Shown piece after piece: positions 2,006-53,758 of a stretch of 64,000 nt of DNA. Numbering within the stretch: the stretch's first letter is position 1; the number at the start of each line of letters is the position of its first letter. This stretch comes from Nitrospinaceae bacterium (GTDB lineage Bacteria > Nitrospinota > Nitrospinia > Nitrospinales > JACRGP01): positions 16,182 through 80,181 of the forward strand of contig JAJDBD010000059.1 in the NCBI GenBank assembly GCA_029261575.1. Reading direction: 5' to 3'. A program made the position numbers and the translations under genes. The notes under the pieces were generated by a model. That model saw nothing but the letters and a program-made list of their open reading frames with translations. It was not told the DNA's origin and ran no database searches.

Positions 2006-2047
2006 ATAACAATGGCTTGTCAATATGGGAATGGATTGGGCGAATCG

Positions 2048-6523: not shown

Positions 6524-6766
6524 GACTCGATTTTTTGGGCGCCGGATTTTTTTTGATAGGCCGTTTTGGGAGGATCAGGGTTTTTCTGAATGTGAATTCT
6601 GGATATGAAGCGTTAAATAATTTTTTCGCTTTCATAGTAGCATAAAATGAGTAAAATCAGTAAAATTAATCACTTGGAGCAGGTTTGCCTCAAGTTTCTA
6701 TGGTAAAATTTTGCTGACGCATTGAGAAAAACGGGCTTTTTATCTTGTTCAACAAATAGGGACATT

Positions 6767-13568: not shown

Positions 13569-14312
13569 ATGCTTTCTCTAATTCAAATTTCCGATTTACA
13601 TATAACGCTTTCTCCCGAAGACCGGTTTCGCGGGGTGGATACGCGGGCCAGTTTGAACCGGGTATTGCAAACCCGCGAGGTCCACGAGGCTGAGGCGCTT
13701 ATCGTTACCGGCGATTTGGCGGCCAAAGACCCGCATCCGGAAATTTACCGCTACATAAAAAATGTTTTGGACGCTTGCGGAACTTCCTATCATATTCTGC
13801 CGGGAAACCACGACCGATCGGACTTGACGGCGGAAATTTTCGGAATGGAGTTGAACGCCGGAAAATTAAATCGTTTTGTGGATCATCCCGCTCCCATGAT
13901 TTTTATGGATTCGTCGACGGAGGAAACGCTTCCCGAGGATCTGGCGTTTCTGGAAAACGCGTTGCGACATTTTTCCGGAAGGCGTCCCTTGCTGTTCATT
14001 CACCATCCTTTGAGGGAATGCGATCATCCTTATTTTGATACGCATTGCGTGCTGAATGGCCGCGAAAAAATCTGCGAAGTTTTGGAAAGGGAAAATGGGG
14101 GAGGGGTCCGGCATGTATTTTCCGGGCACGCTCATAAAAGCCATTCCCAAACTGTTTCCGGTATCGCCTACCACGTAAGCCCGTCGACGGCCTGTGAGTT
14201 TTATTCGACGCCGGACGACGTTTTTGACAGCCACCAAATGCCCGGCTTTCGAAAGATCGTCGTGGAACCGGTTTTGGGCGGATTGGATACGCGAACCATT
14301 TATCTGAGTTGA
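13569..14312 (+). CDS. metallophosphoesterase, Icc/CpdA-like (candidate cyclic-nucleotide phosphodiesterase)
   Basis: 247 aa. Ordered motifs SDLH, TGDL, PGNHD, IHHP and SGHAHKSH. Confidence 0.7.
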   Translation: MLSLIQISDLHITLSPEDRFRGVDTRASLNRVLQTREVHEAEALIVTGDLAAKDPHPEIYRYIKNVLDACGTSYHILPGNHDRSDLTAEIFGMELNAGKLNRFVDHPAPMIFMDSSTEETLPEDLAFLENALRHFSGRRPLLFIHHPLRECDHPYFDTHCVLNGREKICEVLERENGGGVRHVFSGHAHKSHSQTVSGIAYHVSPSTACEFYSTPDDVFDSHQMPGFRKIVVEPVLGGLDTRTIYLS

Positions 14313-18971: not shown

Positions 18972-19076
18972 TCGCTTGCTTGTGGATTAGGGGTTAATGG
19001 AAGACCGGAAAAACAGGTCTCGGCGATTAAGTCGGAACAGGCATAATATCAAAAAAGCCTTGATTATTCTACTTGT

Positions 19077-32946: not shown

Positions 32947-33798
32947 TTAATCCAGGATGGTATTGTTCATGTTTGCCTGTTTGGTGATCGCCTTGGTGAT
33001 ATTGGCGTCGATGAGGTAGGCGTTTCTAAGGTTGGCTTTTGTGAAGTTGGCGCCGTGCAGGTTGGCTTCGAGAAGAAACGTGTTTTCCAGGTTGCATCCT
33101 TCGAAATTCGCGTAGGTTAGATCCACGCCTTCCAGATTGGTTCCGGAAAAATCGACTTCCTGCCCATGGCAATCTTTCAGTTCGCTCCCTGTCAGATTGG
33201 CGCTTGTGAGGTTGACCTTTTCCAGGGTGCATGAGTTCATGTCCGCGTACTTTAATACGGCCCCATGGAGATCGGCGTCGCTGATTTTGGCGAAACTAAG
33301 ATCCGTTCCTCTGGCGTTGACCCCCTTCCAGTCCGATTTGGAAATTTTCATTTCCTTCATATAGCAATACATCATCCGGGCGAAAGAGAAATCCCCGCCT
33401 TCAACGACGCAGGAAAAAAAACTGGAATGGTTCAGGGTGGCGCCCCGGAAATCGCACTTCTGGAACTGGGAGGCGTCGAAGCTTGCGTTGAGTATTTTTG
33501 CGTTTACAAAATTGCAATTTGTGAATGTGGCGTCTTCAAAACTGGATTCTTCCAGTTCCGCGTTGCTGAAGTTGATATTGGTCAAATGCGCATTTTTGAA
33601 GGATGACTTTTTTAAGTTGGCCTGGCTGAAGTTGACTTCGGTAAGATCCGAATCGTCCAGATTGGTTTCCTCCAGCGTTCCGTAGACAAAGGTGGTCCCC
33701 TTTAAACTGATTCCCTTGAGATCGTTGCCGCTGAGATTGATCCCGTCCTGGCAGTTGTTTTGCGCGGTGAGCCGAAGGACTTCGTCGATGTTAGACAT
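32947..33798 (-). CDS. pentapeptide-repeat protein
   Basis: 283 aa, almost entirely A(D/N)LxX pentapeptide repeats. ATG overlaps the upstream MotA-like stop by 8 nt (ATGTCTAA). Confidence 0.85.
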   Translation of the reverse strand: MSNIDEVLRLTAQNNCQDGINLSGNDLKGISLKGTTFVYGTLEETNLDDSDLTEVNFSQANLKKSSFKNAHLTNINFSNAELEESSFEDATFTNCNFVNAKILNASFDASQFQKCDFRGATLNHSSFFSCVVEGGDFSFARMMYCYMKEMKISKSDWKGVNARGTDLSFAKISDADLHGAVLKYADMNSCTLEKVNLTSANLTGSELKDCHGQEVDFSGTNLEGVDLTYANFEGCNLENTFLLEANLHGANFTKANLRNAYLIDANITKAITKQANMNNTILD

Positions 33799-34624
33799 TT
33801 CTATGTTTGTCCGGCGGCAGGAGGGCGTTCATGTTTCTTTGGATTTTCATGGGATTGATGCGGTCGTGAATTCCCATCACGCCGACCCGGATGGCTTTTA
33901 AAAGCGTGGCTTCGCTTTCTGTCCGGGCGTTCAATTTGGCGACGACCGGGGTGATGATCAGGTTGGCGAGCATCAACCCATAAAATGTGGTGATCAGGGC
34001 GGTGGCCAGGGAAGGGCCGATGCTGGAAGGGTCGGCAATCCGCATCAACATTTGAATCAAGCCGATCAAGGTGCCCGCCATGCCAAATACGGGAGCCTGC
34101 ACGGCCATGAACCTGAGGATTTTTTGCCCGGCGTTGTGACGTTCCACCATGGTGTTCAACTCGCGCTCCATGATTTCCTGGATTTCCCTGGCCTGGTATC
34201 CATCGACGATCATGACGATGCCGTTTTTCAAGTGCCGGTTGTTGAGAAGCCGTTCCTCCATTTCCAGTTGCTTCATTCCCCCGCTCCGGTACTTGGTCGC
34301 CAGGGTCATGATTTCGTCGATGTAATCGGCGGGTTGAAGAACGTCTGGTTTGAAGGCGTTGATGATGACCGGCACCATTCCAAGTATTTTTTTCGATGGA
34401 AAGGCGATGAGAGTGGTGGCTATAGTTCCCCCCATAACAATAAACGCGCTATTGAGATTGAGGAAGGTTTCGGAATCGCCGCCGCGAATGATTGCGATGC
34501 TGATTAATAGAATTCCCGAAGCAGCGCCGATGATGGTGCTGAGATCGACCCCGGACGCTTCTTTCGCGGGTTCGATGGACGCGGCTTTTGGGATCGCTTC
34601 GTTTTCTTTTACTGCGGTAGCCAT
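33791..34624 (-). CDS. MotA/PomA-type ion-channel (stator A) subunit
   Basis: 277 aa. Aligns by eye to PomA/MotA: IVDGYQAREIQ and GTLIGLIQMLMRIADPSSIGPSLATALITTFYGLMLANLIITPVVAKL. Confidence 0.85.
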   Translation of the reverse strand: MATAVKENEAIPKAASIEPAKEASGVDLSTIIGAASGILLISIAIIRGGDSETFLNLNSAFIVMGGTIATTLIAFPSKKILGMVPVIINAFKPDVLQPADYIDEIMTLATKYRSGGMKQLEMEERLLNNRHLKNGIVMIVDGYQAREIQEIMERELNTMVERHNAGQKILRFMAVQAPVFGMAGTLIGLIQMLMRIADPSSIGPSLATALITTFYGLMLANLIITPVVAKLNARTESEATLLKAIRVGVMGIHDRINPMKIQRNMNALLPPDKHRNV

Positions 34625-34642: not shown

Positions 34643-36718
34643 TTAACTGGCAAGTTTTTGAGCTTGGGCTTGCGCCTTGGACTTTAGGCTCATTTCAATA
34701 TAATCATGCAGCCAGGGAACCTCTAGTGTTTCTTTACGGCCGGAAGGAACGAAAACCTTTAATAAATTTTCATCCTCGATCTCAAGGTTTATTTTGGGAC
34801 CCAGCTCGTTGATGAATCTGGATATACAGTTTTGACCTGAAAATGTTTTACAAAAAAGCTCGCCCCAGGAAGTCAGATAAACGGGCGTTACGTTCAACGC
34901 AGCGCTCAGGCGGCGACGGAGAAACTCGTTGTAATCCTCCAGGGACTTGCAGTCGTTGATATTCCCAAGGGTTATATCCCTGGGAAGCGGATAACCAAAA
35001 TCCACGATCAAAAAAATCTTGCGGACCTCGGATTCGGCGAGAAGCTCTTCGTTGGAAATGGCCGCAATATTGATCTTCGTGAGAAATCTGGAGATTTGCT
35101 CCAACATCATGTGCAGGTCGACGTCCTTGATGGATTGTCTTTCCGCCCGCAACAGAATGGTGGTGTTGTTATTGTAAAGCCGGTTGAAACCGGCAAAGGC
35201 TATCAGAAAAGGCAACCCGGTCGCGTTCTGGATAATGTTTTCCTTGGGAACGTGCTCCAGGAAGGCGAGGGTTTTCCCCCGGATTAAAAACCAGTTGCCG
35301 CCTTCCCGGGGTTTTTCGTTGTCGAACAGGAAGGTCAATTCCCGCTCCGAACTTTTTCCGTCCACTAAAACAAATAAACATTCCACCTTGTGGGGCGCGG
35401 TGCGGTAGTAACTGAACAGTTTGCGTCCCAAAAGATGGGTGTCTCGGTCGGAAATCAAGCTTTCGCCGGGAGCGAGGGTTTTATTTGCTTCCGAGATTTT
35501 TTTGTAGGAATTCATCAGGATTTTATTCACCCGATTGCCCAAGCTCACTTTTTGCATTATTTGCCAGTTTTTATAATCGTTCAACTGTTCCAGCTTTTTG
35601 GCGGTCCATTCCCATTCGCGAATCATTGCGATCAGAGTTCGCTTGGTATGGAATTCGGATTTTTCATCCAGTTCTTCAGGAGCGATCTGGGTTCCGACTT
35701 TTAGATAAAACGCCGTTCGCAATGCGTCCACTTCGTTTTCGGATTTGGTTTCCTTGAAGTATTTTTCGACCCGAGCAAACAGCATGAGGTAGGGATCGAT
35801 GGTCAAATATTCTTCGCCGTTGAAAATTAAATTTTTGACCTGGTGGCACAGCAGATTCGATTTGGTTTGGCCGAACATGTATTCTTCGAGCAATCCCATT
35901 TTCATCAGGGTTTTGAAAGGGGACTGAAACGATTTGATCAAGGCCCAGATGGATCCGCCAAAAAATTCTCCCTGGGAAATATCGTCCACGTTCCCCATAT
36001 CGACAAATTCGTTGGGATTCAGAATGGATTGCCCGTTCTGGAGTTGATGGAGAAACTCGGCGTATTGCTCGTCGTTGGTTTCCACCGGAACGATCATCCA
36101 CAACGGGATTTTGCCGGCGGCGATGATGGCCGTGCGGTACATCTCCTCTTTTAATAATTTCGCGAGGGCGGAACCGGTGCTTTCGCTGTCGCTTTCCCCA
36201 AAAATGTTTTTTTTGACTTCCTCAATATCGTTGATAAAAAAATGGACCTCGATGACGAAAGTTTTCCACGCCCATTTTTCGATCAACATCAGCTTCTTTT
36301 TGAACAGCTCCATCCGTTCGGGAGAAATGGAATTTTTGTGGACCAATAACGTGTAATCGAGATCGGATTTTTGGGTCATCGCGATGGACCCCACGCTCCC
36401 CATCAGCAATACGGTATGAATGATAGGCTCCAGATTTTTGGGGCGGCTGGCAATGACGTCTGGAAACATGAATTCGCAGGCGACCTGGGATTCTTTGGTG
36501 AGATTGAAGTTGCCTATTCCGCAGGGAACGTCGCCCTCTACATAACCGGGGAAGCCTTCTTGATTGATATGCAACAACCGCGGGATCAAATAAAATATCC
36601 AGCGCTCTCCCGAGCGCAGGGTTTGAAACGTGCGGGTGAGTTTGAATCGATTGAACCTGTGGAAGGCCTGGCGATTTTCGAATAAAATATCCGTGGTTTC
36701 TGGCGCGGTTGTGGTCAT
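34643..36718 (-). CDS. class I (CyaA-type) adenylate cyclase homologue
   Basis: 691 aa. Colinear by eye with the E. coli CyaA catalytic region: LLHINQEGFPGYVEGDVPCGI, MGSVGSIAMTQKSDLDYTLLV (G-S...DxD), EEMYRTAIIAAGKIPLWMIVP, GEFFGGSIWALIKSFQSPFKTLMKMGLLEEY, DPYLMLFARVEKYF, FYLKV and NWQIMQKV. Confidence 0.8.
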   Translation of the reverse strand: MTTTAPETTDILFENRQAFHRFNRFKLTRTFQTLRSGERWIFYLIPRLLHINQEGFPGYVEGDVPCGIGNFNLTKESQVACEFMFPDVIASRPKNLEPIIHTVLLMGSVGSIAMTQKSDLDYTLLVHKNSISPERMELFKKKLMLIEKWAWKTFVIEVHFFINDIEEVKKNIFGESDSESTGSALAKLLKEEMYRTAIIAAGKIPLWMIVPVETNDEQYAEFLHQLQNGQSILNPNEFVDMGNVDDISQGEFFGGSIWALIKSFQSPFKTLMKMGLLEEYMFGQTKSNLLCHQVKNLIFNGEEYLTIDPYLMLFARVEKYFKETKSENEVDALRTAFYLKVGTQIAPEELDEKSEFHTKRTLIAMIREWEWTAKKLEQLNDYKNWQIMQKVSLGNRVNKILMNSYKKISEANKTLAPGESLISDRDTHLLGRKLFSYYRTAPHKVECLFVLVDGKSSERELTFLFDNEKPREGGNWFLIRGKTLAFLEHVPKENIIQNATGLPFLIAFAGFNRLYNNNTTILLRAERQSIKDVDLHMMLEQISRFLTKINIAAISNEELLAESEVRKIFLIVDFGYPLPRDITLGNINDCKSLEDYNEFLRRRLSAALNVTPVYLTSWGELFCKTFSGQNCISRFINELGPKINLEIEDENLLKVFVPSGRKETLEVPWLHDYIEMSLKSKAQAQAQKLAS

Positions 36719-36802: not shown

Positions 36803-38398
36803 TTACTTTTTAGTCGGGGCTTCGCCGCTGGGCGCCTGCCCGGCGGGTGGGGCCTTGTCTTTGGATAATTGTTTGCCTAACTGGCCTGCGCTTTCCTCTT
36901 CTTTGGCCACTTCCTTGTCTTTAAGGATTTTAATATCCACCCGACGGTTCAAGGCGCGGTTATCGTCCGAGTCGTTGGGTTTGAGGGGGCGGTATTCCCC
37001 GTATCCGGAGACCACTAATTGTTCCGGGCGAAAATTTAATTTCTCGATGATAACGCGGGCCACGCTGGAAGCCCTGGCGGACGACAATTCCCAATTGGAA
37101 GGGAATTGATCGTTTTTAATGGGAACGTTATCCGTGTGGCCTTCGACCAAAGCCTGTTTCACTCCCTCTTGCATTTGACCCCGGATGGCGTCCAGAATGA
37201 TCTGGTCGGCGCCTTCCAGGAGGTCCGCGCTTCCCGGTCCGAACAGGTCGGAGTTCTGCAACCTTATCAGAATGGTCCGGGTGTCGCTTCGCACCAGGGA
37301 TTCCGGATCGACATTGTCCTTGACCAGTTCGCGCACCCGGTCCAGCATGGCCACTTCCTGGCCGGTCAACCAGACGTTGGATACCTCAATGCGCACTTTT
37401 TTGGACTGGAAAGAAGACAGGGCCTCGGCGAACTTGTCTACGTTTAATTTCGAAACCGTGTACAGCAAAACAAAAATTACCAGGAGCAGGGTGATCATGT
37501 CCGAATAGGTGATGAGGAAATTTTCCAGTCCCGAAGAGAACTCCGCCGTTTGAGCGCCCCGTCCTTCAACGTTCATTCTGGAGTCGAGCCGGCCGGCGGA
37601 GTCTTTTTCATCGGCCATGGACAATTTCATTTCCAGTTCCGTATTCGACTGAGCCAGTTTTTCCATTTCCAATTCCATTTTCCTGCGTTCTTCTTCCAGA
37701 ATGTCCAGATCCTCGCGCAATTCTAAAATAATTTCCGAAGGGAGCATGCCCTCCTGGCCCGGAGCCGCGTCTCCATACAGCATTTTTTCGTAGGATTCTA
37801 TGACGTTGTCTTTTTCGCGTATCAGTTCTTCGTAGTCCACAAGAGATTGGCCGGGATTTCTCCTCAAATTATCCAACTCCTGTCTCAATTCCTTGTTTCT
37901 ATCCTTAAGGACGTCCGTTTCCTCTCCAAGTTTTTTTAGTTTTTTTAGCTCTTTTAAAAGGACCTTTTTTTCACGGTTTTGTTTGGAGCGGATTTTTTCG
38001 TTTTTCTCAATTTCTGCTTTGAGGGCGGCCTCGTTCTTTTTGAGTTCTTGTAATTTTTTTAAAAGTTGCGGATCGGTAGAATAATCCAGGTCCTCGCCGT
38101 CTCCTTCCTTGCCGGACTTCCCCATTTTGGCATGCCTTGCGGCCCTTGCGGCCCAGGCGGCTTGTTGGGCTTCCTTGATTTCCTCCTCTTTGCCTTTGAT
38201 CAGTACCTGGAGTTCCGCCATCTTTTTTTGATTGAGCTTGACGACGTCTTTTATCTTCTTTTCCGTTTTTTCAATGATCCGGGTCTGGTTCTTGAGCTTC
38301 TGATTGGTGATTTTTAGTTGCTCTTTAACCAGTTGTAGGGTTTCGGGATTTTGCATGGTATGATCCGGTTTTTGTTGATTTATCGGTTTAAACGGCAA
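36803..38398 (-). CDS. MotB/OmpA-family protein with long N-terminal coiled coil
   Basis: 531 aa. ~290 aa of K/E-rich coiled-coil-like sequence comes first. Next is a MotB TM with the conserved Asp (ITYSDMITLLLVIFVLL), then an OmpA-like peptidoglycan-binding domain (VEGHTDNVP, NWELSSARA, NRRVDIKI). The start is uncertain (TTG 38398 or ATG 38356). Confidence 0.8.
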   Translation of the reverse strand: MPFKPINQQKPDHTMQNPETLQLVKEQLKITNQKLKNQTRIIEKTEKKIKDVVKLNQKKMAELQVLIKGKEEEIKEAQQAAWAARAARHAKMGKSGKEGDGEDLDYSTDPQLLKKLQELKKNEAALKAEIEKNEKIRSKQNREKKVLLKELKKLKKLGEETDVLKDRNKELRQELDNLRRNPGQSLVDYEELIREKDNVIESYEKMLYGDAAPGQEGMLPSEIILELREDLDILEEERRKMELEMEKLAQSNTELEMKLSMADEKDSAGRLDSRMNVEGRGAQTAEFSSGLENFLITYSDMITLLLVIFVLLYTVSKLNVDKFAEALSSFQSKKVRIEVSNVWLTGQEVAMLDRVRELVKDNVDPESLVRSDTRTILIRLQNSDLFGPGSADLLEGADQIILDAIRGQMQEGVKQALVEGHTDNVPIKNDQFPSNWELSSARASSVARVIIEKLNFRPEQLVVSGYGEYRPLKPNDSDDNRALNRRVDIKILKDKEVAKEEESAGQLGKQLSKDKAPPAGQAPSGEAPTKK

Positions 38399-38592
38399 AA
38401 AAGCTTATAATAAAATGACTTTAAACGATTTAAAATCAACGAAATGTGGTTTTTTTGCTTTACCTAGATTTTATGCAACTCTCTTGGTGCACGTCAATAT
38501 CCCTGTAAGTTTAAATTTTTACAGGGTTTCGTCTTTTCTGTCGCCTGGTTGGACGGACCCATAGGGGCGTTGATTCCAGCGGGAAAACTTTT

Positions 38593-39828
38593 ATGAGCAA
38601 TGGAGTTGAAACCTTTTCCAAGCGCCGGATTGGAGCGGTTTTTTTGTTGGGGTTTTCTTCCGGCCTGCCTTTGGCCCTGACCGGTGGAACTCTTCAAGCC
38701 TGGATGACCGTGGAGGGGGTCGATCTTAAAACCATCGGTATTTTTACCCTCGTTGGCTTGCCTTACACGCTAAAGTTTCTATGGTCCCCTTTGATGGACC
38801 GCTTTGTTCCTCCCTGGTTAGGACGGCGACGGGGTTGGTTGATTCTGACACAAATTGCCTTGATGGGCCTTATTTTTCTAATCTCCCAGGCGTCGCCGCG
38901 GGAGGCCCCCATGCTTTTGGCCGTTTTGGCTCTAGGGTTGGCTTTCAGTTCCGCGTCTCAGGATATCGTGGTTGACGCCTATCGGGCGGATATTCTGAAA
39001 GAGAAAGAGCGCGGACTGGGCGCCGCGACGTCCGTGACGGGTTACCGAATCGCCATGCTGGTTTCCGGCGCGCTGGCCCTGGTTTTATCCGAGTCAATTG
39101 GTTGGCAGACAACCTACCTGTTGATGGCCGTTTTGATGGTCATCGGAATGGGCGCGTCTTTAACGGGTCCTGAGCCGGAAGATAAAATTGTCCCTCCCCG
39201 CACACTTCAGGAAGCCATAACCCATCCGCTGACTGAGTTTTTTAGTCGCAAAGCGGCCTGGGGATTTTTGGCGCTTATTATTCTATACAAAATTGGCGAC
39301 GCTTTTGCCGGCAGTCTGACCACGGCTTTTTTGATTCGCGGGGTCGGGTTTTCGGTGGGTGAAGTTGGGACCGTAAACAAAGGGCTGGGGCTTTTGGCCA
39401 CCATTGTGGGCGCCTTGTTTGGCGGCGCGCTGATGGCGCGGTTAGGATTGTATCGTTCTTTGATGTTGTACGGGTGCCTGCAAGCGGTTTCCAATCTTTC
39501 CTTCATGGGACTCGCGTGGTTGGGGAAAAATTACTACATGATGATTTTTACCATCGCGTTTGAAAATATAGCCGGGGGCATGGGGACGGCGGCTTTTGTG
39601 GCTTTTTTGATGACGCTTTGCGACCATCGTTATACGGCCACTCAATTCGCGTTGCTTTCCGCGCTGGCTTCTTTAGGCCGGGTGTTTGTCGGTCCGCCCT
39701 CCGGCTTCCTGGCTGATGAATTGGGATGGATTACATTTTTCTTCATCACCTTCCTTGCGGCCTTGCCCGGATTGTTTCTTCTTTGGCGCATGAAATCGAG
39801 AATAGAGGGGCTTAAAGCGCACGGATGA
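38593..39828 (+). CDS. ampG: AmpG-family muropeptide MFS permease
   Basis: 411 aa. FLLGFSSGLPLALTGGTLQAWMT and PYTLKFLWSPLMDR. Confidence 0.85.
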   Translation: MSNGVETFSKRRIGAVFLLGFSSGLPLALTGGTLQAWMTVEGVDLKTIGIFTLVGLPYTLKFLWSPLMDRFVPPWLGRRRGWLILTQIALMGLIFLISQASPREAPMLLAVLALGLAFSSASQDIVVDAYRADILKEKERGLGAATSVTGYRIAMLVSGALALVLSESIGWQTTYLLMAVLMVIGMGASLTGPEPEDKIVPPRTLQEAITHPLTEFFSRKAAWGFLALIILYKIGDAFAGSLTTAFLIRGVGFSVGEVGTVNKGLGLLATIVGALFGGALMARLGLYRSLMLYGCLQAVSNLSFMGLAWLGKNYYMMIFTIAFENIAGGMGTAAFVAFLMTLCDHRYTATQFALLSALASLGRVFVGPPSGFLADELGWITFFFITFLAALPGLFLLWRMKSRIEGLKAHG

Positions 39829-40484
39829 CCCGGTTTCTTTATTTGCACGGTTTCGCCTCCAGTCCCGGTTCTTTCAAAGCTTCAAGATTTAAAAAAGAGT
39901 TTTCCAAAAGAGGAATCGATCTGATCGTTCCCGAACTGGACGGGGGGAATTTTGAAAATTTGACGGTATCCAGTCAGATAAAAATCGCCCGGCAATGCCT
40001 GGATCAATTTCCGGAAGACAGGTATGGCTTGATTGGGAGCAGTATGGGCGGCTATTTGGCGGCTTTGCTGGCGCAGTCGAACCCCAACGTTGCGGCGATG
40101 TACCTCATGGCTCCGGGGTTTAATTTCACGGCCCGATGGGCGGAAAAGGTTCGTTGCGAGTTCGGGGAAGACGGGGCGATTCCCGGCTTGATAAAGGTAT
40201 TTCATTATCGGTACAATGATTTTAGATGGTTGAGTACTGGTTTGTTCGCCGACGCTGCGGCTTGGGATCGGCTTGAATTGGACCGGAGTTTGCCCTGCAA
40301 AATTGTCCACGGGGTTCACGACGATACGGTGGATATTGAGGAATCGCGAAGGTTTGCCGCGACCCGGCCCTGGGTCCGGTTGGTAGAGTTGGATTCCGAC
40401 CACACCCTTATGTCGCGTATCGGCTGGATCGTTGAGGATTGTTTTGAATTTTTTTCCGAATTTCATTTGATCAAACAGGTATGA
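39825..40484 (+). CDS. YqiA-like alpha/beta esterase
   Basis: 219 aa. FLYLHGFASSPGSFKA and GSSMGGYLA. ATGA overlap with ampG. Confidence 0.7.
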   Translation: MTRFLYLHGFASSPGSFKASRFKKEFSKRGIDLIVPELDGGNFENLTVSSQIKIARQCLDQFPEDRYGLIGSSMGGYLAALLAQSNPNVAAMYLMAPGFNFTARWAEKVRCEFGEDGAIPGLIKVFHYRYNDFRWLSTGLFADAAAWDRLELDRSLPCKIVHGVHDDTVDIEESRRFAATRPWVRLVELDSDHTLMSRIGWIVEDCFEFFSEFHLIKQV

Positions 40485-41080
40485 GTTTGGAAGCGGAGAG
40501 TTTCAAGCGATTGAGGTTGGCGGTTCGTTTGGCCCGGAGAGGCCACGCGGGACAATTCCGTAAAGGCCGCCTGAAAGAGATTTATTACTGCCATCCAAAA
40601 CGGGTATGTAAGGCTTATTTGAAGTACAAATTTAACTCGCTCGACGGCGCCATTGCCTGTCTTTGCCACGACTTGGTGGAGGATACCGAGTTGAGTTTAC
40701 CTGATATTGAGCGTGAGTTTGGACCCACGGTAGAATCTCTGGTGGACTATTTGACCAAACCTCCGGAGCTTCCCAGCCTGGAATACGCCAGCTTGATGAA
40801 CGGCTGGAGCCTGGAGGCGAAAAAAATAAAGCTCTGCGATATTGAGGATAATATTATCAGCTCCCGGCAAATCTCGCCGGACCGCAGGGAAAGGATGCTG
40901 GGAAAATGGCTGGCGTTCCTTTCTAACCTGAACGAGATCTCCGTCGGTTCCTGCGAAAAAACTTCGGAGTTTTTGGATAAAAAGCGTAAGGTTTGCGAGC
41001 TTTGCCGCGACGAACTGTCAACATGTAATCGACTCCAGGAGAAATCGGCTCTTTTGCAAAACAATCAGTCCACGCCATGA
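40481..41080 (+). CDS. HD-domain protein, SpoT/Mesh1-type (p)ppGpp hydrolase-like
   Basis: 199 aa. ARRGHAGQFRK...YYCHP...CLCHDLVEDT...FGPTVESLVDYLTK matches the SpoT hydrolase (HD_4) pattern. ATGA overlaps on both sides. Confidence 0.65.
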   Translation: MSLEAESFKRLRLAVRLARRGHAGQFRKGRLKEIYYCHPKRVCKAYLKYKFNSLDGAIACLCHDLVEDTELSLPDIEREFGPTVESLVDYLTKPPELPSLEYASLMNGWSLEAKKIKLCDIEDNIISSRQISPDRRERMLGKWLAFLSNLNEISVGSCEKTSEFLDKKRKVCELCRDELSTCNRLQEKSALLQNNQSTP

Positions 41081-41763
41081 AACAGTCCATTTTAATTATT
41101 GACGACGATCTGGATTTATTGAATTTGTTGAAAACCAAATTTGAAAAAGACGGATTCGATATCTTGACCGCGCTCGACGGCGAGGAGGGGTTGAGTCTGG
41201 CCCAAAAAAAGCCGCCGGACCTGATCGTTCTCGACGTCAAGATGCCGGGGCGTTCGGGTTTGGACGTCTGCAAAAATTTAAAGGAAGCGGGGAGCACCAA
41301 AACCGTTCCGGTGATCATGTTGACGTCCAAGAACGAAGAGATGGATCGCATATTGGGTTTGGAACTCGGCGCCGACGATTACCTTGCCAAGCCGTTCAGT
41401 TACCGGGAATTGTTGCTTCGAATCAAAAGTATATTGAGGCGGACGGCCTCCAAGCCGTTAAAACAGAAGCGGGTCGTTAAACTGGGAGAGTTGACGGTTG
41501 ATAACGTCAATCACGAGGTTTGGGTCGGCAAAGAGAAAATTTTTTTAACGCTCACAGAATTTAACCTGCTCGCCACCCTGATGGAAAGTCCGGGGCAGGT
41601 GAAGACGCGCGAATTTCTTTTGGAGGAAATCTGGGATTATAACGACGGGGTTTATTCGCGAACCGTCGACACCCATGTCCAAAGGTTGCGTACCAAATTG
41701 CTAGACGTCGGACACTCCATAGAAACCATCCGCGGTGTGGGATATCGGTTTAATAAGGCCTGA
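41077..41763 (+). CDS. OmpR/PhoB-family response regulator
   Basis: 228 aa. Receiver domain (ILIIDDD...LIVLDVKMPG...KP) plus a winged-helix C-terminus (TVDTHVQRLRTKL...RGVGYRF). No histidine kinase gene adjacent. Confidence 0.9.
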   Translation: MKQSILIIDDDLDLLNLLKTKFEKDGFDILTALDGEEGLSLAQKKPPDLIVLDVKMPGRSGLDVCKNLKEAGSTKTVPVIMLTSKNEEMDRILGLELGADDYLAKPFSYRELLLRIKSILRRTASKPLKQKRVVKLGELTVDNVNHEVWVGKEKIFLTLTEFNLLATLMESPGQVKTREFLLEEIWDYNDGVYSRTVDTHVQRLRTKLLDVGHSIETIRGVGYRFNKA

Positions 41764-42437: not shown

Positions 42438-43202
42438 TCAAACCGCTCCGAGAGCGGTTTTAAGGGTCCAACCCTTTTTGTCTTCCTCCAATTGGATTTG
42501 GTTCCATTGGTCTTTCTCTCCCAGAATGGATACCACCGCTCCTTCATGCAATCGAAACAAAGTGACATGACCCTTTCCAAAGGAAGATTTAACCTCCACA
42601 AGCTTGGTTAACACCACCCCCCGTTGATTCCTACTCCCGAAGTCCAGGTAAGACATGGCTCCGTTGGAAATCAGGCCCGCCAACGTCAAAGCCAGCGCGG
42701 TTTTTCGCAGGATATCGAAAACGCGGTTGCGGTATATCAGCCACAGGGTCAGACTCGTCCAAAAAAGAAAATTGGCGAGCGCCAACGCCAGTAAATTTTC
42801 ATTACGGTTTATAGAGTCCAGCCAAAAAAACAAGTTGCGCAATATGCCGGAGCGTTTTGGCGCGATTTTATCCTCCGTGTTTTGTGTCGCATAATTCAAA
42901 TTGGCCTGCAAGTCCGCGTTTCTGGGGAGAAGTTGTTGAGCGCGTAAATAATTTAAAATGCTCAACCCTTTTTTTCCTTGTCGATAATAAGCGTTGCCCA
43001 GATTATAAAAAAGATAGCCGTTTTGTACGCCTTGCCCGACGAGGCTTTCATAAATTTTCGCGGCTTCCTGGAAGCGTTGGCTTTCGTACAAATCGTTGGC
43101 TCGGGCGACGTCTCTTTGGGTATCCAGGGCCTCGCAATGAACGGGAGCCAATGCAATTAAAAAGAATAAAACCATGATTTGCCAAAGCGGTCGCGGATTC
43201 AT
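42438..43202 (-). CDS. batE: BatE-like TPR + SH3b protein
   Basis: 254 aa. Signal peptide, TPR (ANDLYESQRFQEAAKIYE...GNAYYRQG), TM segments, and a C-terminal SH3-like GAVVSILGEKDQWNQIQLEEDKKGW. Confidence 0.65.
   Translation of the reverse strand: MNPRPLWQIMVLFFLIALAPVHCEALDTQRDVARANDLYESQRFQEAAKIYESLVGQGVQNGYLFYNLGNAYYRQGKKGLSILNYLRAQQLLPRNADLQANLNYATQNTEDKIAPKRSGILRNLFFWLDSINRNENLLALALANFLFWTSLTLWLIYRNRVFDILRKTALALTLAGLISNGAMSYLDFGSRNQRGVVLTKLVEVKSSFGKGHVTLFRLHEGAVVSILGEKDQWNQIQLEEDKKGWTLKTALGAV
42440..42462 (+). terminator. hairpin terminator between convergent genes
   Basis: AAACCGCTC-CGA-GAGCGGTTT (9-bp stem) followed by TTA. It overlaps the last codons of the minus-strand batE-like gene. 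Confidence 0.4.
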
Positions 43203-44998
43203 AATTTTTTTTCCAGTTTTTCCAAAACTTCAAAAGACTCTTCGATCAACTTATCGGAAGCCACGGGCCGTTGCGCTCCTCCCCGGTATTGAATTTCCTC
43301 GCATTTTTCCAGCAAAGCCCGCATTGATTTTGCGGATTCTTCCGGGAAACGTTTTTCCCTTAACTTGAGTTCCACCTCCACGGGAGTGAAAGCGGCGCCG
43401 GGCAAATTCAGTTTGTCGCCGACATATTCCCGAAGGGCTTTTGAAATTTCGACGATGGATTCTCCGTTGCCTGCGGATTGGGTTTTCTGGAGACGTTTCT
43501 TGGCGGACCTGTAAGCGTTCTTGTTGCGCGTAAAGGCAAGGTCGTATTTTAATCTGTCCTTGTGGCGAACCCACCAGGCGGTTCCACAAAATAAAAATAC
43601 CGGCGCCAAAAAAGCCGCCCAAAGATAATTCCGCCGGGGGCCTGTCAGGGCCTGATTGCTAAAATCGGACAGTCGGGTGTGAATGGGAAGGATGTCTTCT
43701 CCTAAAATTTTCACCTCGGGCGCCTGGGGCGCGATGGCCGACTGGGGAGCCTGAACAATTTTCAATTTTTCCCTGGCGGGGGCCTGTGTGATTTTTAAAG
43801 AGATTTTTTTTGTTTGCCTCGTGATGTACTTTCCGGCGGCGGGGTCGAAATAGGACAGGGAGATCGGGGGGACTTGTAAATCGCCGTCCCGGAGAGGCAC
43901 CAACGCCCATTTAAAAGTTTTTCCGCCCGCAAGGTTTTTACCGTCGATCCATTTTTTGAAATCCGGCTGGTCCGGATAAACTTTGAATTGGTCCAGGACG
44001 TCCAGATTGGGAGTGGGAATATCGTAAACGTTTCCCTTTCCGGATATCGTCAGGGTCAGCGTGGTGGAGTCGCCAAACTCCAACTCATGCTTTCCCAGTC
44101 TCGCCGAAATGGCGAACTGGCCCACCAGATTGGAAAATCCCGCGGGTTTATCTTGTTCGGGAAGCGGCAGAGCTTCTACTTGTATCGTCGACGTTCGCAG
44201 GGTTTTATGCGCGCTGCTGGTTCCCCCAAAAAACGGATCGTTAAAAAACCGGTCGAAAAAAGGGTCGGAATGGGATCGGGATTTATCCTGAATCAGGATA
44301 TCGATATCCACCCGAGACGGAGGGATTTCCAGGACGCCGACCTTTGAAGGAAATAAAGCCTTGGAGACTTCGTAAACGTTGTATTGGAGTCCGTCCACCA
44401 CCTGGGAATATTGCTTGTCCTGGCCCAGGGGTTCCTCGCGGAAACCGTCGAAGGTTTGCTTCAGGTTGATGTTTCTCGCGTTGACCCGGCGGAACAGTTT
44501 GAAAGTGTAAATCGCCTGTTCGTTGACGAATAATTTGTTTTTCGAAATGGACGCCTCGGCAAACACCAGTCTTCCCGAGCGGGATTGTGCGGCAACTTGT
44601 TTTACCGTAACAATAATGGGTTTAGTGGAATAAATTTTTCCGTCCAATTCCAGCCTGGCCGCGCCAATTTCCAGTTGCCCCGCTTTTTGGGGAACCAGGT
44701 TGTAGGTGAAGACGATGGATTTGGAAACCTGGGAGTTGATTACCTGGACCTGAGTCTGGGTTCCCGTGGAACGGATATCAAAATCTTTCAGGTCGGGAAG
44801 AGCGGGGGAGGGGGCGGTCTTTACTCCGTTGACGGCGATGGAAAGATTGACCGAGTCTTCAAGAGAGATTTCCGTTTTGTCTACCGAGGCCGTTAACCCG
44901 ATTTCCTTGGCATAAACCTGGGCAGCGGGGAGGGCGGCCGTCAAAAATAAGCCGCAGAGGATATAAGCGCAATATCTCGATATCAAATAGAATCTCAT
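43199..44998 (-). CDS. batD: BatD-like (oxygen-tolerance) protein
   Basis: 599 aa. Signal peptide, a long beta-rich ectodomain, a late TM (YLWAAFLAPVFLFCGTAWWV). 4-nt overlap with batE-like. Confidence 0.65.
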   Translation of the reverse strand: MRFYLISRYCAYILCGLFLTAALPAAQVYAKEIGLTASVDKTEISLEDSVNLSIAVNGVKTAPSPALPDLKDFDIRSTGTQTQVQVINSQVSKSIVFTYNLVPQKAGQLEIGAARLELDGKIYSTKPIIVTVKQVAAQSRSGRLVFAEASISKNKLFVNEQAIYTFKLFRRVNARNINLKQTFDGFREEPLGQDKQYSQVVDGLQYNVYEVSKALFPSKVGVLEIPPSRVDIDILIQDKSRSHSDPFFDRFFNDPFFGGTSSAHKTLRTSTIQVEALPLPEQDKPAGFSNLVGQFAISARLGKHELEFGDSTTLTLTISGKGNVYDIPTPNLDVLDQFKVYPDQPDFKKWIDGKNLAGGKTFKWALVPLRDGDLQVPPISLSYFDPAAGKYITRQTKKISLKITQAPAREKLKIVQAPQSAIAPQAPEVKILGEDILPIHTRLSDFSNQALTGPRRNYLWAAFLAPVFLFCGTAWWVRHKDRLKYDLAFTRNKNAYRSAKKRLQKTQSAGNGESIVEISKALREYVGDKLNLPGAAFTPVEVELKLREKRFPEESAKSMRALLEKCEEIQYRGGAQRPVASDKLIEESFEVLEKLEKKL

Positions 44999-45001
44999 CG
45001 C

Positions 45002-45841
45002 TTACCAATCGTTTCCCTGATATGCGGGGGACTCGAAAATTTCTTCGAGAGCTTGTTTGCGGTTGAATTTTTTTGGGGCCTCTTCCAACGAACGCAACCA
45101 TTGCTCCGCCTCTTGCTTGCTCATGGATTCTTTGGGACGCGCCTGGGCGGTTTGCGTTTCTTCCCGGCGGGACTCTTTTTTGTCCTGGGGGTTTTGCGAA
45201 GGTTGGTTTTTCGCGTTCTCTTCGTCCGGCTTTTTGTCCTGCGCCTTATCCTTGTCTTTTTTCTTTTTGTCGTCGTCGTTTTGTTTTTTATCCTTCGGGT
45301 CGGAGGAGGCCGAATCTTTTTTTTGTTCCTGCTCCTGTTCTTTTTTCTTGAGTTGGAGCCGGGCGTATTCGAGATTGAACTTGGCGTCCATGTCTGTAGG
45401 ATCGAGTTTGAGGGCCTCTTTATAGGAGGCAATGGATTCCTCAAGCTTTCCCAGCCGATACAGGGCGTTGCCGGAATTGTAAAGCGCGTTCTGTTTTAAT
45501 TTGGATTCCCCGGAGGCGGCTTGGCTGTAACCGGAAAGCGCTTCTTGAAATTTACCCTGTTTATAAAAACTGTTGCCCAGGTTGTAGTCGACGCCGGGAT
45601 TATCGGGTTGGTCCTCTTTGGCGGATTTAAAGGATTGAACGGCGGAGGAATAATTTTGCGCGTTGTAGTCTTCGATTCCCTGACGAGCAGGATTGTCAAA
45701 AAGCTGGGCGTTGCCGGAGGGCGGAATAAGCAGGGCAAAACCATTTAAGACAAAACAAAATATATATACTGGAAAAAAGCGCATAAACTTTGTGGAGGGT
45801 TGTTGGATAAAATGGATGAATGCGGCGGTTTTGGAAATCAC
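45002..45841 (-). CDS. batC: BatC-like TPR protein with K/D/E-rich tail
   Basis: 279 aa. TPRs (NLGNSFYKQGKFQEAL, NSGNALYRLGKLEESI) followed by a charged low-complexity tail. Confidence 0.6.
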   Translation of the reverse strand: MISKTAAFIHFIQQPSTKFMRFFPVYIFCFVLNGFALLIPPSGNAQLFDNPARQGIEDYNAQNYSSAVQSFKSAKEDQPDNPGVDYNLGNSFYKQGKFQEALSGYSQAASGESKLKQNALYNSGNALYRLGKLEESIASYKEALKLDPTDMDAKFNLEYARLQLKKKEQEQEQKKDSASSDPKDKKQNDDDKKKKDKDKAQDKKPDEENAKNQPSQNPQDKKESRREETQTAQARPKESMSKQEAEQWLRSLEEAPKKFNRKQALEEIFESPAYQGNDW

Positions 45842-45983
45842 GTATAGAATTTATCTATTTTACCACACTGTTTACCCGCGAATGATTTTGATAATATATT
45901 AATCTAAATGGATTTTTCCCCGCAAAAATTTTCTTTTCTACCCGGGGGGTTGGGAAGCTCGATCAATCTGGAGGCGGTATTGC

Positions 45984-47144
45984 ATGCCCGGCAGGCTTCT
46001 GAAATATTTTTTAATCTGGTTTGTATTGATTTTTGTCCTCTCCCTTACGGTTGAAAACTGGACGCGAATCAACCTGTTTATTTTTGGTCGTCCGGACCCG
46101 CAGGATTTGGCTTTCAACCAGCCGGGCAATCTTTCCGGAAACCGGCCCCTCGTCGTTTCCCGGGACGAGCAGATCAATATGGACGTGTTTGAAAAGGTCC
46201 ATGAAGCCGTTGTCAATATCGTCGCCACGACGCTCACCGTAAATTTTTGGATGCAGGTGATTCCCCAGCAGGGCCAGGGGTCGGGTTTCATCATCGACGA
46301 CAGGGGATTCATCCTGACCAATAATCACGTCGTGGCCGACGCGCAAAAAATCACCGTCACCTTCGGGAACGGAAAAAAAGTTTCGGCTTCATTGGTTGGG
46401 CGCGACCCGTCCAACGACCTGGCGGTGATCAAAGTATCCAAATCCAAAGTAGAGGCCGTCGCCCCCTTGGGAAATTCCGACGAAGTCCGCGTTGGACAAA
46501 AAGCCATCGCCATTGGCAATCCCTTTGGCTTGTCGCAAACTCTCACCACCGGCACGGTGAGCGCCTTGAACCGGGACCTTAAAGAAGAATCCGGCGCTGT
46601 TTTGACCGGTCTGATCCAAACCGACGCGGCCATCAATCCGGGAAACTCCGGCGGACCTTTGCTCAATTCCAACGGCGAAGTCATCGGCGTCAACACGGCC
46701 ATATTCAGCTTGTCCGGCGGGTATCAGGGAATCGGGTTCGCCATTCCGGTGAACCGCGCCCGGGAAGTGGCCACGCAACTCATCGCCAACGGAAGGTTTG
46801 CGCAACCCTGGTTGGGGATTTCCGGAATGGCCCTGAACCGGGAATTTGCCGACGTCCTGCAAATATCAAGCGACGAGGGAATCCTCGTTGTCGGGGTCTA
46901 TCCCGAAAGCCCGGCCCACAACGCCGGACTGCGCGGGGGCGACCGGGAAATGATTGTCGGCAATTACCGCGTGCCCGTCGGTGGAGACGTGGTCCTGAGT
47001 CTCAACGGCAAAAAAATGTTGGACATGGACGACCTGATTCGGGAGGTCAAGCGTCACCAGGTCGGCGACGCCCTCAACCTGGAAATTTTAAGAAAAAACC
47101 GCTCCGCTATTGTATCCGTCGTGCTAGAGGAAAAACCCTCCTGA
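45984..47144 (+). CDS. HtrA/DegS-like S1C serine protease with PDZ domain
   Basis: 386 aa. N-terminal TM, catalytic TNNHVV / DLAVIKV / GNSGGPL, and a C-terminal PDZ. Confidence 0.85.
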   Translation: MPGRLLKYFLIWFVLIFVLSLTVENWTRINLFIFGRPDPQDLAFNQPGNLSGNRPLVVSRDEQINMDVFEKVHEAVVNIVATTLTVNFWMQVIPQQGQGSGFIIDDRGFILTNNHVVADAQKITVTFGNGKKVSASLVGRDPSNDLAVIKVSKSKVEAVAPLGNSDEVRVGQKAIAIGNPFGLSQTLTTGTVSALNRDLKEESGAVLTGLIQTDAAINPGNSGGPLLNSNGEVIGVNTAIFSLSGGYQGIGFAIPVNRAREVATQLIANGRFAQPWLGISGMALNREFADVLQISSDEGILVVGVYPESPAHNAGLRGGDREMIVGNYRVPVGGDVVLSLNGKKMLDMDDLIREVKRHQVGDALNLEILRKNRSAIVSVVLEEKPS

Positions 47145-47231
47145 TCGTCCCGCAGGGCTACCGAAAAACCGGAAAACCGGGGAACAAGGTTTTTCCTGCA
47201 ACGAAAAACCCTTTTCCCCGAGAAAACTTTT

Positions 47232-47933
47232 TTACCGCCGGTCTCCCATAAGCCTCAACATCATCAGGAACAAATTGATGAAATCCAGATACAAGGTCAG
47301 CGCGCCGGAGATGGCTTCTTTATGGTCCTCGTCGGTGCCTTCATTGCCCAGGATATTCATTTCCTTGATTTTTTGCGTGTCGTAAGCGGTGAGGCCGACA
47401 AAGATCAATACTCCGGCATAGGTGATGATCCAGTGCATCGCCGAGCTTTGCAGGAACATATTGACCACGGAGGCCAGGATGATACCGATCAGTCCCATGA
47501 ACAGGAAACTTCCCCAGGAGGTCAGGTCCTTTTTGGTCGTGTAGCCGTAAAGGCTCATCGCCCCAAAGGTGCCTGCCGTGACCAGAAAAGCGCTGGTGAT
47601 GGACGACGCCGTGTACACCAGAAAAATGAACGACAGCGTCAGGCCGTTTAGTCCCGAATAGAGGATGAAAACGCCGGTCGCCTGACTGGCGGTCATTTTT
47701 TCGATCCAACCGGCAAGATAAAACACCAGTCCCAATTCCACAATGATCAATCCGAAAAACAGGATTTGATTTCCAAAAATCAGGTTGGTCATGGTTTCGC
47801 TGTTGGCAACCCAAAAGGCCATGAAGCCGGTGGTGGCGAGTCCAATGCCCATCCAGTTATAAACTTTTACCATGAACCGCTGCTGCTCGGCGGCGATGGT
47901 TTCAGCGCTACTAGCGTACATAGGGTTTTGCAT
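47232..47933 (-). CDS. Bax-inhibitor-1/YccA-family membrane protein
   Basis: 233 aa, seven TM. C-terminal ALTLYLDFINLFLMMLRL. Confidence 0.8.
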   Translation of the reverse strand: MQNPMYASSAETIAAEQQRFMVKVYNWMGIGLATTGFMAFWVANSETMTNLIFGNQILFFGLIIVELGLVFYLAGWIEKMTASQATGVFILYSGLNGLTLSFIFLVYTASSITSAFLVTAGTFGAMSLYGYTTKKDLTSWGSFLFMGLIGIILASVVNMFLQSSAMHWIITYAGVLIFVGLTAYDTQKIKEMNILGNEGTDEDHKEAISGALTLYLDFINLFLMMLRLMGDRR

Positions 47934-48012
47934 CGTTAAATCCTTCTAAATTATCGGTTAATTTTTGTTGTCCTTGTTCAAATAAAATCCAAATATTGTC
48001 TTGTCAAGAAGA

Positions 48013-49215
48013 TCATTTTCTTCGTGATTCCATCATTAAATAAAGCCGAATCAATCGGTTGGGGAAAACCCATTCCCCTTTTTGGTCGCCGGACTTCAAT
48101 GCCTGAAGTTTTTTCATTCGTTGAAGAAAATTTGAAAATTTCTTTTTTTCCGTTACGGTAAGTTTTTTTTCAACTTCGGTTTTTGAAAAGCTCAATTCAA
48201 GGCCCAATGTACCCAATTTTTTCAATATAGAGTGATAATCCGAGCTACGCAAGGCCCTTTGAATGGGTTGGAAATATTTTTTCCCAACGGCGTCGGCGGC
48301 GTCAAACGCTCCATCAAACGAATCGTCATCGTCAATAAGGTCGTCTTTATCGCACCAAAATGTGGCTTCTCCCAATTCATGCATCAGGGTTGGAAGACCT
48401 CCGGAATATTTGTTTAATATTTTCAAAGCGCTTTCTTCAATTCTTATATTTACGCTTGCAAATGCGTCGTTAAAAAAAGAATCGACCTCCAGAGCGCTCA
48501 AGGGTTTGATTTCGGCAATATTAAAGATGCGCTCAACGGAGCGTTGGTGCTGAAGAATTTCTTCGCGTCTTTCGGGAACTCCAGTCAGGATAAGCAATAG
48601 GGGGAGGGGAAGCCCGCTGGTGGCGATTTCGTCCACCATGCTTTTTAATAAAGCGGCAAATTCCGGAGTCCTGGTGATTCCGTTTAGATCGTCCAGAATT
48701 AAGGTCAAGCCTTGGTATTCATCTTTTAATGAATCATAAATTTGGCGCAAGAACGGCAAAAAACCATGGGCCAGCGCAGGCGCGTCCTTTTTGATCGTCC
48801 CAAGGTTAAGTTTAACGCCAAACAAGGTTACTTCCTGAACATACTTTTCTAAAATGCTTTTTACTTTGTCAAAGTTTTTATTGCTATGGGTTTGATGGAT
48901 GATATTAGAAATCACCTGTTCCATCATTTTTTCAATGGTGGTTGCCCCACCAAGATAAACATGAAATCCGGCCAGCTTGTATTCTTCTTCCGCGGCGAAA
49001 CGTATAAAAGCCCCAAGTGAGCTTTTACCCATCCCATATTCCCCGGTTAAAAATATATTTTCCTGTTTTCCCATGGCAACCTGACTGGCGGCCCTAAGAA
49101 TTTGGTCGATTTCGGTTTTTCTACCGACAAACAATTCTCTTGGAACCGGTTTGCCCGGGCTGAACGGGCTTCGAGCTTTGTTGGGTTGCGAGTAATATTG
49201 ATTAAGACCTTTCAT
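48013..49215 (-). CDS. AAA/ORC-like P-loop ATPase with putative C-terminal winged helix (stand-alone)
   Basis: 400 aa. ELFVGRKTEIDQI...FLTGEYGMGKSS (Walker A) and LTLILDDL (Walker B). Visibly AT-richer than its neighbours. Confidence 0.65.
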   Translation of the reverse strand: MKGLNQYYSQPNKARSPFSPGKPVPRELFVGRKTEIDQILRAASQVAMGKQENIFLTGEYGMGKSSLGAFIRFAAEEEYKLAGFHVYLGGATTIEKMMEQVISNIIHQTHSNKNFDKVKSILEKYVQEVTLFGVKLNLGTIKKDAPALAHGFLPFLRQIYDSLKDEYQGLTLILDDLNGITRTPEFAALLKSMVDEIATSGLPLPLLLILTGVPERREEILQHQRSVERIFNIAEIKPLSALEVDSFFNDAFASVNIRIEESALKILNKYSGGLPTLMHELGEATFWCDKDDLIDDDDSFDGAFDAADAVGKKYFQPIQRALRSSDYHSILKKLGTLGLELSFSKTEVEKKLTVTEKKKFSNFLQRMKKLQALKSGDQKGEWVFPNRLIRLYLMMESRRK

Positions 49216-49344
49216 TTAGGAGCCATATATTTAAAAAACTACATTAATAAAGCTGATTTCGTCCATTTACATACTAGGGACTTTCTCTTGTCTCTTCAAG
49301 GTGATAAAAACCGCATTGGAAATTTAAGTTTCCATGTCCGTTTA

Positions 49345-50328: not shown

Positions 50329-50330
50329 GA

Positions 50331-52791: not shown

Positions 52792-52792
52792 G

Positions 52793-53740: not shown

Positions 53741-53758
53741 GCGCGGGTCAGGCTCGGG

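Follow-up and report, generated by a model that had tools for sequence, protein, structure and literature searches.

A 64,000-nt stretch of Nitrospinaceae core chromosome (the window) carries a four-gene minus-strand operon in which cya, the gene of a class I (CyaA-type) nucleotide cyclase, is preceded by a motB-like stator gene and followed by a motA/pomA-like stator gene and a gene for a pentapeptide-repeat protein (PRP), in the order motB-cya-motA-PRP and with spacings of 84, 18 and -8 nt (Table 1). We hold with moderate confidence that cya encodes an active short-form class I cyclase, that the PRP is its partner in trans, and that the pair is optionally coupled to a flagellar-type stator. 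The directly supported elements of this reading are the domain-level family membership of the cyclase, the conservation of its catalytic motif, the architecture of the operon, and the pattern of synteny and gene loss across related loci. According to the mechanism that we propose, the cya product would be a soluble, catalytically competent enzyme of the Pol-beta fold that most probably makes cyclic AMP (cAMP), the identity of the product being deduced from family membership, and the place of the C-terminal tail of the enterobacterial enzyme would be taken by the presumably cytoplasmic PRP encoded directly downstream, as a putative regulator in trans. For most Nitrospinaceae this cya-PRP core would be co-transcribed with an ion-driven MotA/MotB stator whose MotB bears a long, predicted cytoplasmic helical extension, and the stator would be an accessory, either feeding information on stator activity, load or ion-motive force into cAMP synthesis or serving as a motility output under common regulation.

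Cyclase family membership and active site

The cya product has the two Pfam domains of class I adenylate cyclases. PF12633 (Adenyl_cycl_N) matches residues 16-208 (E=3e-49, 168 bits versus a gathering cut-off of 27) and PF01295 (Adenylate_cycl) matches residues 237-679 (E=1e-68, 232.7 bits versus a gathering cut-off of 27), the latter covering positions 1-443 of the 601 in the profile and leaving 444-601 unmatched. There are also matches to nine NCBIfam 'class I adenylate cyclase' models (E from 1e-67 to 4e-131), the best being NF006981 (638 positions) with 438 bits versus a cut-off of 802, and public databases already annotate the protein as a class I adenylate cyclase. The E. coli CyaA protein (NC_000913, 848 aa) aligns with it colinearly over ∼680 residues at 26% identity, and CyaA residues ∼680-848 have no counterpart in the Nitrospinaceae cyclase in this pairwise alignment. 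This supports two statements of an initial annotation made from the bare sequence, namely that cya is a class I adenylate cyclase homologue with an intact DxD motif and that its product is shorter than the roughly 850-aa E. coli enzyme (691 versus 848 aa, the C-terminal tail being missing). The similarity that the same annotation placed in the catalytic half is indeed found there, but it extends over nearly the whole protein. In view of the missing tail it is plausible that the enzyme is not under the control of the phosphotransferase system (PTS).

The shortness of the protein had been taken as a special feature, which does not hold up against the family as a whole. An exhaustive HMMER search returned 1148 clusters (50% identity) at E<=1e-3, and the 150 representatives taken from them fall into three length classes of ∼650-700 aa, ∼900-960 aa and ∼1300 aa, so that ∼650-700 aa is a major class, in keeping with the 638 positions of NF006981. 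The longest class comprises P0139 and ∼25 further representatives, one source being a Desulfobacterales metagenome-assembled genome (MAG), and its members carry an N-terminal extension of ∼680 residues. The closest homologue of the window cyclase comes from a Nitrospinaceae MAG (90% identity), 56-58% identity is shared with the orthologues of Nitrospina gracilis and N. watsonii, and orthologues within the Nitrospinaceae range from 50 to 90% identity. Beyond this clade the nearest relatives are proteins of 660-700 aa from Tectomicrobia, other Nitrospinota and Oligoflexales MAGs, at 32-37% identity. A PDB sequence search with the cyclase gave no match at E<=1, and the nearest solved folds to its AlphaFold2 model (predicted local distance difference test score (pLDDT) 83.8, predicted template modelling score 0.77) are adenylyltransferases of the Pol-beta type, ANT(9), AadA, DrrA, GlnE and MNT, all of them weak matches with E>1e-3.

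The active site was examined in an alignment of 152 sequences (the window cyclase, E. coli CyaA and the 150 representatives). Residues G107-S108...S118-D119-L120-D121 (nt 36356-36400) correspond to E. coli G102-S103...S113-D114-L115-D116, and the G, S, S, D and D columns of this Pol-beta-type motif, G-S-x9-S-D-x-D, are 99-100% conserved. All other near-invariant polar residues are kept as well (K136, E185, R188, D231, K253, K260, K264, K286, D300, Y302 and K332 in E. coli numbering), as are G195, W200 and G233; about 18 family-invariant residues are retained beside the motif. The initial annotation had proposed a check of the catalytic residues on a proper alignment, and the outcome is divided, as all acidic and basic invariants are in place but E. 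coli W118 is replaced by Thr123, a substitution that we weigh below.

Stator genes and pentapeptide-repeat protein across the Nitrospinaceae

The MotB-like and MotA-like neighbours lie on the same strand as cya, so that its placement between stator genes, as first annotated, is confirmed. MotA has four transmembrane (TM) segments, and its R113, E121, P178 and P226, equivalent to E. coli R90, E98, P173 and P222, are kept in 45/45, 43/45, 45/45 and 45/45 orthologues, respectively. In MotB the order of domains is a helical extension, a TM segment with the channel Asp, the plug and an OmpA-type peptidoglycan-binding domain; the channel residue D300 (nt 37499-37501), equivalent to E. coli D32, is invariant in all 35 orthologues compared. 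The best family matches of the pair are PomA, MotP, MotD and MotS, and the equivalog cut-offs of PomA, MotP, MotA, MotB, MotD and MotS are all unmet (MotA matches PomA over its full length with 192 bits, below 341; for MotD the values are 137 versus 283). By sequence, then, the stator pair is of the flagellar type, ion-conducting and competent for rotor contact. It is atypical in two respects when set against the usual short cytoplasmic MotB N-terminus and adjacent motA-motB genes, as motB comes first with cya placed before motA, and MotB bears an N-terminal extension of ∼285 aa rich in K, E and L whose presence is conserved across orthologues. In a single-sequence AlphaFold2 model residues 4-261 form long helices with a pLDDT of 70-80, the remainder of the model being poor. 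The true start of MotB is probably the ATG at 38356 (M15, giving 517 aa) and not the listed TTG at 38398, as the orthologues begin there. A search for MotA homologues that was meant to reveal paralogues had, as its listed matches, Nitrospinae orthologues.

The PRP has repeats over its entire 283 aa (PF00805, 196.8 bits, 10 stretches) and is without a signal peptide; its best NCBIfam match is HetL, at 165 bits and below the cut-off of 260. The gene was absent from the initial account of the locus.

To place the operon in its lineage we compared 71 metagenome loci with orthologous cyclases, together with genome loci, by mapping the window proteins with tblastn; counts of arrangements refer to 73 orthologous Nitrospinaceae loci. 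In all lineages the operon lies at one fixed site, with ampG on one side and an FGE-sulfatase gene on the other, and four arrangements occupy it. The majority have the order motB-cya-motA-PRP (arrangement A), with a full-length MotA downstream of cya in 35 of 59 judgeable loci and a long MotB upstream in 36 of 54. N. gracilis has the same order, as do two complete genomes (3.4 and 4.0 Mb) and ∼35 metagenome loci, the cyclases of the latter being only 52-62% identical. Fifteen loci have cya-PRP without MotAB (arrangement B), among them L008, which carries the orthologue that branches first and a PRP of 283 aa with 48% identity to that of the window. In five loci MotAB has decayed to deletion scars (arrangement C): at L019, with scars at 3668-3960 and 6267-6752, motB consists of two mini open reading frames (ORFs) matching only the extreme N- and C-termini and motA has an in-frame internal deletion with TM1-2 gone, while cya (729 aa) and the PRP gene are intact. 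Finally, an AT-rich lineage has motB'-motA'-cya-PRP (arrangement D, MotAB upstream in ∼4 loci), in which MotB' keeps an extension of ∼170 aa and the channel Asp. A PRP orthologue lies downstream of cya in 59 of 59 judgeable loci, the MotAB-less ones included.

On a neighbour-joining tree of 63 cyclases, built without bootstrap, loss or decay of MotAB falls on at least 3-4 separate branches, and the loci of arrangement D group within those of A. The cyclases of MotAB-less loci are as conserved as the others and differ from them at 16 scattered, mostly conservative columns. Because MotAB has been repeatedly lost, degraded or moved while cya stays intact and equally conserved, the cyclase does not depend on it. 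We also asked whether a surface patch of the cyclase had become relaxed after MotAB loss and rejected this, as the 16 class-specific columns are scattered and carry no such signal. Judged by gene order and conservation, cya and the PRP gene are a conserved functional unit, and MotAB is an expendable accessory, which most Nitrospinaceae acquired or retained. A functional link between cyclase and stator, in either direction, is nevertheless likely, because the four genes stay adjacent through a change of order and through deep divergence, and because motA and the PRP gene overlap; the 8-nt overlap of the PRP start with the motA stop suggests translational coupling of the two.

Seven loci of outgroup short class I cyclases were inspected and none (0/7) has stator genes or a PRP gene beside the cyclase, and because of this we take the stator linkage to be a specific innovation retained in the Nitrospinaceae. 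Several of these outgroup cyclases have a lineage-specific gene of their own directly downstream, encoding REC-TPR, PilZ-like or small unknown proteins, so short cyclases of class I seem to be accompanied by downstream partners that differ between lineages. The PilZ-like protein is that directly downstream of the L007 cyclase, and in a clade of short cyclases with Val at the position of W118 the one or two proteins that come next are always REC+TPR (L082 2795-3823, L084 7151-9325). By the same logic of position we infer that the PRP is a trans-acting partner or regulator of the Nitrospinaceae cyclase.

Competing explanations

Several observations weigh against an active, PRP-partnered cAMP-producing cyclase. 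All nine NCBIfam matches of the cyclase lie below their equivalog cut-offs, the case for the PRP as regulator consists of gene adjacency, and the literature that we searched gives no activity data for class I cyclases from outside the Gammaproteobacteria. Scanning ∼50 window ORFs gave no CRP or other cyclic-nucleotide (cNMP)-binding protein, and the window has no CRP-type site TGTGA-N6-TCACA at <=1 mismatch. The most pointed objection is the active-site substitution itself. E. coli W118, two residues past the second catalytic Asp, is Trp in 142 of the 152 aligned sequences and is reportedly essential in the E. coli enzyme, yet the window cyclase has Thr123 in its place. If this change altered the chemistry, the protein would not be an adenylate cyclase at all but would use another nucleoside triphosphate or form another cyclic product, act as a nucleotidyltransferase that does not cyclise, or persist as a dead scaffold. 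The unmet equivalog cut-offs would fit such a reading, as would the position of the residue, which from beta-strand geometry should lie on the same strand and face as the second Asp. However, all of the ∼18 other near-invariant polar and glycine positions are kept, the two Asp, the two Ser and the Lys/Arg set among them, and Thr123 is invariant in 48 of 48 aligned Nitrospinaceae orthologues at 55-90% identity, which indicates purifying selection and not decay. The nearest outgroups keep the sequence 'WVC' here, and Val or Asn occupies the position in another, independent clade of short forms. Because the replacement arose twice and persisted both times it appears to be tolerated, and together these patterns suggest a tolerated or specificity-altering change fixed under selection. 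We therefore regard a loss or change of the cyclase reaction as markedly improbable.

The remaining explanations differ in the role that they give to the stator. The initial annotation proposed that the flanking MotA/MotB proteins might supply the regulation. In its full form this model has a stator-like complex of non-flagellar function as a dedicated sensor replacing the PTS-responsive tail, with ion flow or peptidoglycan engagement switching cAMP synthesis through the MotB coiled-coil extension. The position of cya physically between motB and motA speaks for this, as does a linkage kept across cyclases at 52-62% identity and across two gene orders; the conserved and atypical ∼285-aa extension could serve as a docking arm, and conservation among the four proteins is highest for MotA (median identity 65% versus 58% for Cya). 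If MotAB were the dedicated regulator, however, the cyclase should not do without it, and it does: MotAB is missing from 15, reduced to scars in 5 and moved in ∼4 of the 73 loci with cya intact, through at least 3-4 independent losses or decays on the neighbour-joining tree that leave both cya and the PRP gene in place, and it is missing beside the earliest-branching orthologue. Nor do the MotAB-less cyclases show relaxed or patch-wise altered conservation, and MotA keeps the FliG-contact residues R90 and E98, as expected for a real flagellar stator. MotAB is thus not required, and we consider a dedicated sensor improbable.

At the opposite end, motB and motA might simply encode a plain flagellar stator beside which cya and the PRP gene lie by accident or for shared transcription, MotAB loss then tracking the loss of motility. 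The hallmark residues of flagellar stators are all kept (MotA R90, E98, P173 and P222; MotB D32, the plug and the peptidoglycan-binding domain), the best family matches are PomA, MotP, MotD and MotS, and cya does without MotAB. Genes for flagellar assembly and for chemotaxis are also reported in the core genome of Nitrospina and Nitromaritima, although their motility has yet to be observed (PMC5029188), and N. gracilis has 97 coding sequences in the COG cell-motility category (PMC3578206). Against mere adjacency stand the cohesion of the four genes through an order-changing rearrangement, the 8-nt overlap of motA and the PRP gene with the translational coupling that it suggests, the absence of stator genes from all seven outgroup cyclase loci, and, from general knowledge, a motB-first interrupted order and a long MotB extension that are atypical of flagellar stators. 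Mere adjacency strikes us as unlikely. A more specific version of the coupling that we favour would have a MotA5MotB2 stator dock the cyclase and the PRP through the ∼285-residue MotB coiled-coil arm, so that engagement, load or ion flux sets cAMP, with the arrangement lost in non-motile lineages; we put this forward tentatively, as a rather unlikely form of the link, and as a smaller addition to it the W118T active site may shift nucleotide specificity.

Cyclic-nucleotide synthases are common in defence systems, and the window MotB matches ZorB models in PADLOC with E down to 2e-22, which raises the question of whether a MotAB-like envelope sensor and a nucleotide-signal generator form an anti-phage module of the Zorya kind. 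We rejected this candidate. The ZorB matches reflect generic MotB similarity, while MotA, Cya and the PRP have no PADLOC match; the 277-aa MotA is without the long tail of ZorA, there is no ZorC, ZorD or ZorE, and the operon occupies a fixed site of the core genome and not a variable island. A Zorya-like function is extremely improbable. An active short-form cyclase with the PRP as its trans partner and an optional stator coupling is accordingly the explanation that we retain.

Surroundings of the operon and relation to known systems

Table 1. Features of the operon and the candidate phosphodiesterase in the window
Feature	Position	Strand	Description
cya	34643..36718	-	Short-form class I (CyaA-type) nucleotide cyclase, 691 aa, ATG start
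Catalytic strand-loop motif of cya	36350..36400	-	GSVGSIAMTQKSDLDYT; G107 S108 ... S118 D119 L120 D121 Y122 T123
motB-like	36803..38398	-	Pfam MotB_plug 292-332 and OmpA 385-485
motA/pomA-like stator A subunit	33791..34624	-	277 aa; Pfam MotA_ExbB
Pentapeptide-repeat protein (PRP)	32947..33798	-	283 aa; Pfam Pentapeptide E=2e-59
Candidate operon promoter upstream of motB	38468..38497	-	TTGACG-18-TAAAAT; consensus scan, 10/12 matches
Metallophosphoesterase, candidate cyclic-nucleotide phosphodiesterase	13569..14312	+	Calcineurin-type; Pfam Metallophos E=8e-11

The candidate promoter upstream of motB is weak, as the count of promoter-like sites in the region is not above the shuffled expectation. 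A perfect palindrome, CCCTGTAA-N10-TTACAGGG, at 38501-38526 abuts its -35 element and is conserved in none of 88 fetched loci (0/88), the MAG with the 90%-identical cyclase included. The divergent upstream neighbour of the operon is an AmpG-family muropeptide transporter gene, the first of a plus-strand block (38593-41763) that continues with a YqiA-like esterase (UPF0227), a small HD_4 (RelA/SpoT-type HD) protein and an OmpR-type response regulator and that adjoins the cya operon in synteny across all Nitrospinaceae loci; in E. coli, yqiA lies within the cpdA operon. The metallophosphoesterase had been proposed as an Icc/CpdA-like phosphodiesterase. Its calcineurin-type Metallophos domain is secure, but the likeness to CpdA is weak and sub-threshold (NF008359, 71.5 bits versus a cut-off of 225) and about equal to that to the 2',3'-cNMP phosphodiesterase SpdA (67.6 versus 400), and the gene lies 20 kb from the cya operon in an unrelated context.

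Elsewhere in the window, a cobalamin riboswitch (1820-2006, minus strand, 95.6 bits) lies ahead of a Peripla_BP_2 ORF (776-1873) whose listed TTG start overlaps it, so that the real start is probably further downstream. A BatA/BatD-MoxR-DUF58-VWA operon of the 'aerotolerance' type (43199-54796, minus strand) includes a 340-aa ORF without Pfam match (51326-52348) and an AAA_16/BrxC-like ATPase (48013-49215). On the plus strand, 20705-22474 encodes a 589-aa protein that joins a bactofilin domain to a long TPR array, a fusion also found near the locus in the 4.0-Mb Nitrospinaceae genome (L089), and two minus-strand ORFs, 5150-6523 (457 aa) and 18987-19760 (257 aa), have no Pfam match at the thresholds used.

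Compared with E. coli CyaA, the Nitrospinaceae cyclase has the same two Pfam domains, a colinear alignment of ∼680 residues, the GS...SDxD motif and the invariant polar residues, but is without the ∼680-848 tail and has Thr for W118; in E. coli, moreover, cyaA stands alone next to hemC/cyaY, whereas here cya shares its operon with stator-type genes and a PRP gene. The short forms from outside the Gammaproteobacteria (NF006981 type) are closer in length (650-700 aa), share the domains and in several cases have their own downstream gene, yet most keep W118, and MotAB or PRP genes adjoin none of the seven inspected. The stator resembles flagellar MotAB/PomAB in the four TM segments and hallmark residues of MotA and in the channel Asp, plug and OmpA-type domain of MotB, and departs from them in the ∼285-aa extension, the leading motB, the inserted cya and the sub-cut-off NCBIfam scores. 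Stator- or motor-dependent second messengers are described for the Caulobacter motor with DgcB and c-di-GMP, for Pseudomonas stators with SadC, and for Pil-Chp with CyaB. The likeness to these systems is in concept only, a stator or motor serving as mechanosensor that feeds a nucleotide cyclase, since they use GGDEF or class III cyclases encoded elsewhere, whereas here a class I cyclase lies inside a stator operon and the system is known from its genes alone. Zorya ZorAB likewise belongs to the 5:2 MotAB-type motor family put to signalling instead of rotation, and differs in the ZorA tail, the ZorC/ZorD effectors and the genomic location, the likeness of MotB to ZorB being generic. With HetL, Qnr and MfpA the window PRP shares pentapeptide repeats, but it falls below the HetL cut-off and is strictly syntenic with cya; we know of no PRP that acts as a cyclase partner. 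The searched literature contains no paper linking class I cyclases to MotA, and neither cAMP nor CRP nor stators are a topic of the genome papers on Nitrospina, so the operon association with stator and PRP genes, the extended MotB and the clade-wide W118T appear to be undescribed there.

Class I cyclases are textbook enzymes whose regulation is known from the enterobacterial PTS paradigm, and the enzyme described here has no solved relative by PDB sequence search. Among the non-enterobacterial representatives sampled, short forms without the enterobacterial tail are numerous and, in the loci examined, mostly paired with a lineage-specific downstream gene. In the main marine nitrite oxidisers the cya gene lies within an operon for a flagellar-type stator, the MotB of which bears an unusually long, predicted cytoplasmic arm. 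If cyclase and stator are indeed coupled, this would be a genetically explicit link between a stator and cAMP and a tractable system for studying signal transmission by 5:2 motors; if the MotB arm is the docking site, it would amount to hard-wired mechanosensing, or sensing of ion-motive force, from stator to cAMP. Should there be no coupling, the loss of stator genes in several lineages of the Nitrospinaceae would still be documented by the loci at which motAB has repeatedly decayed while the cya-PRP pair stayed intact.

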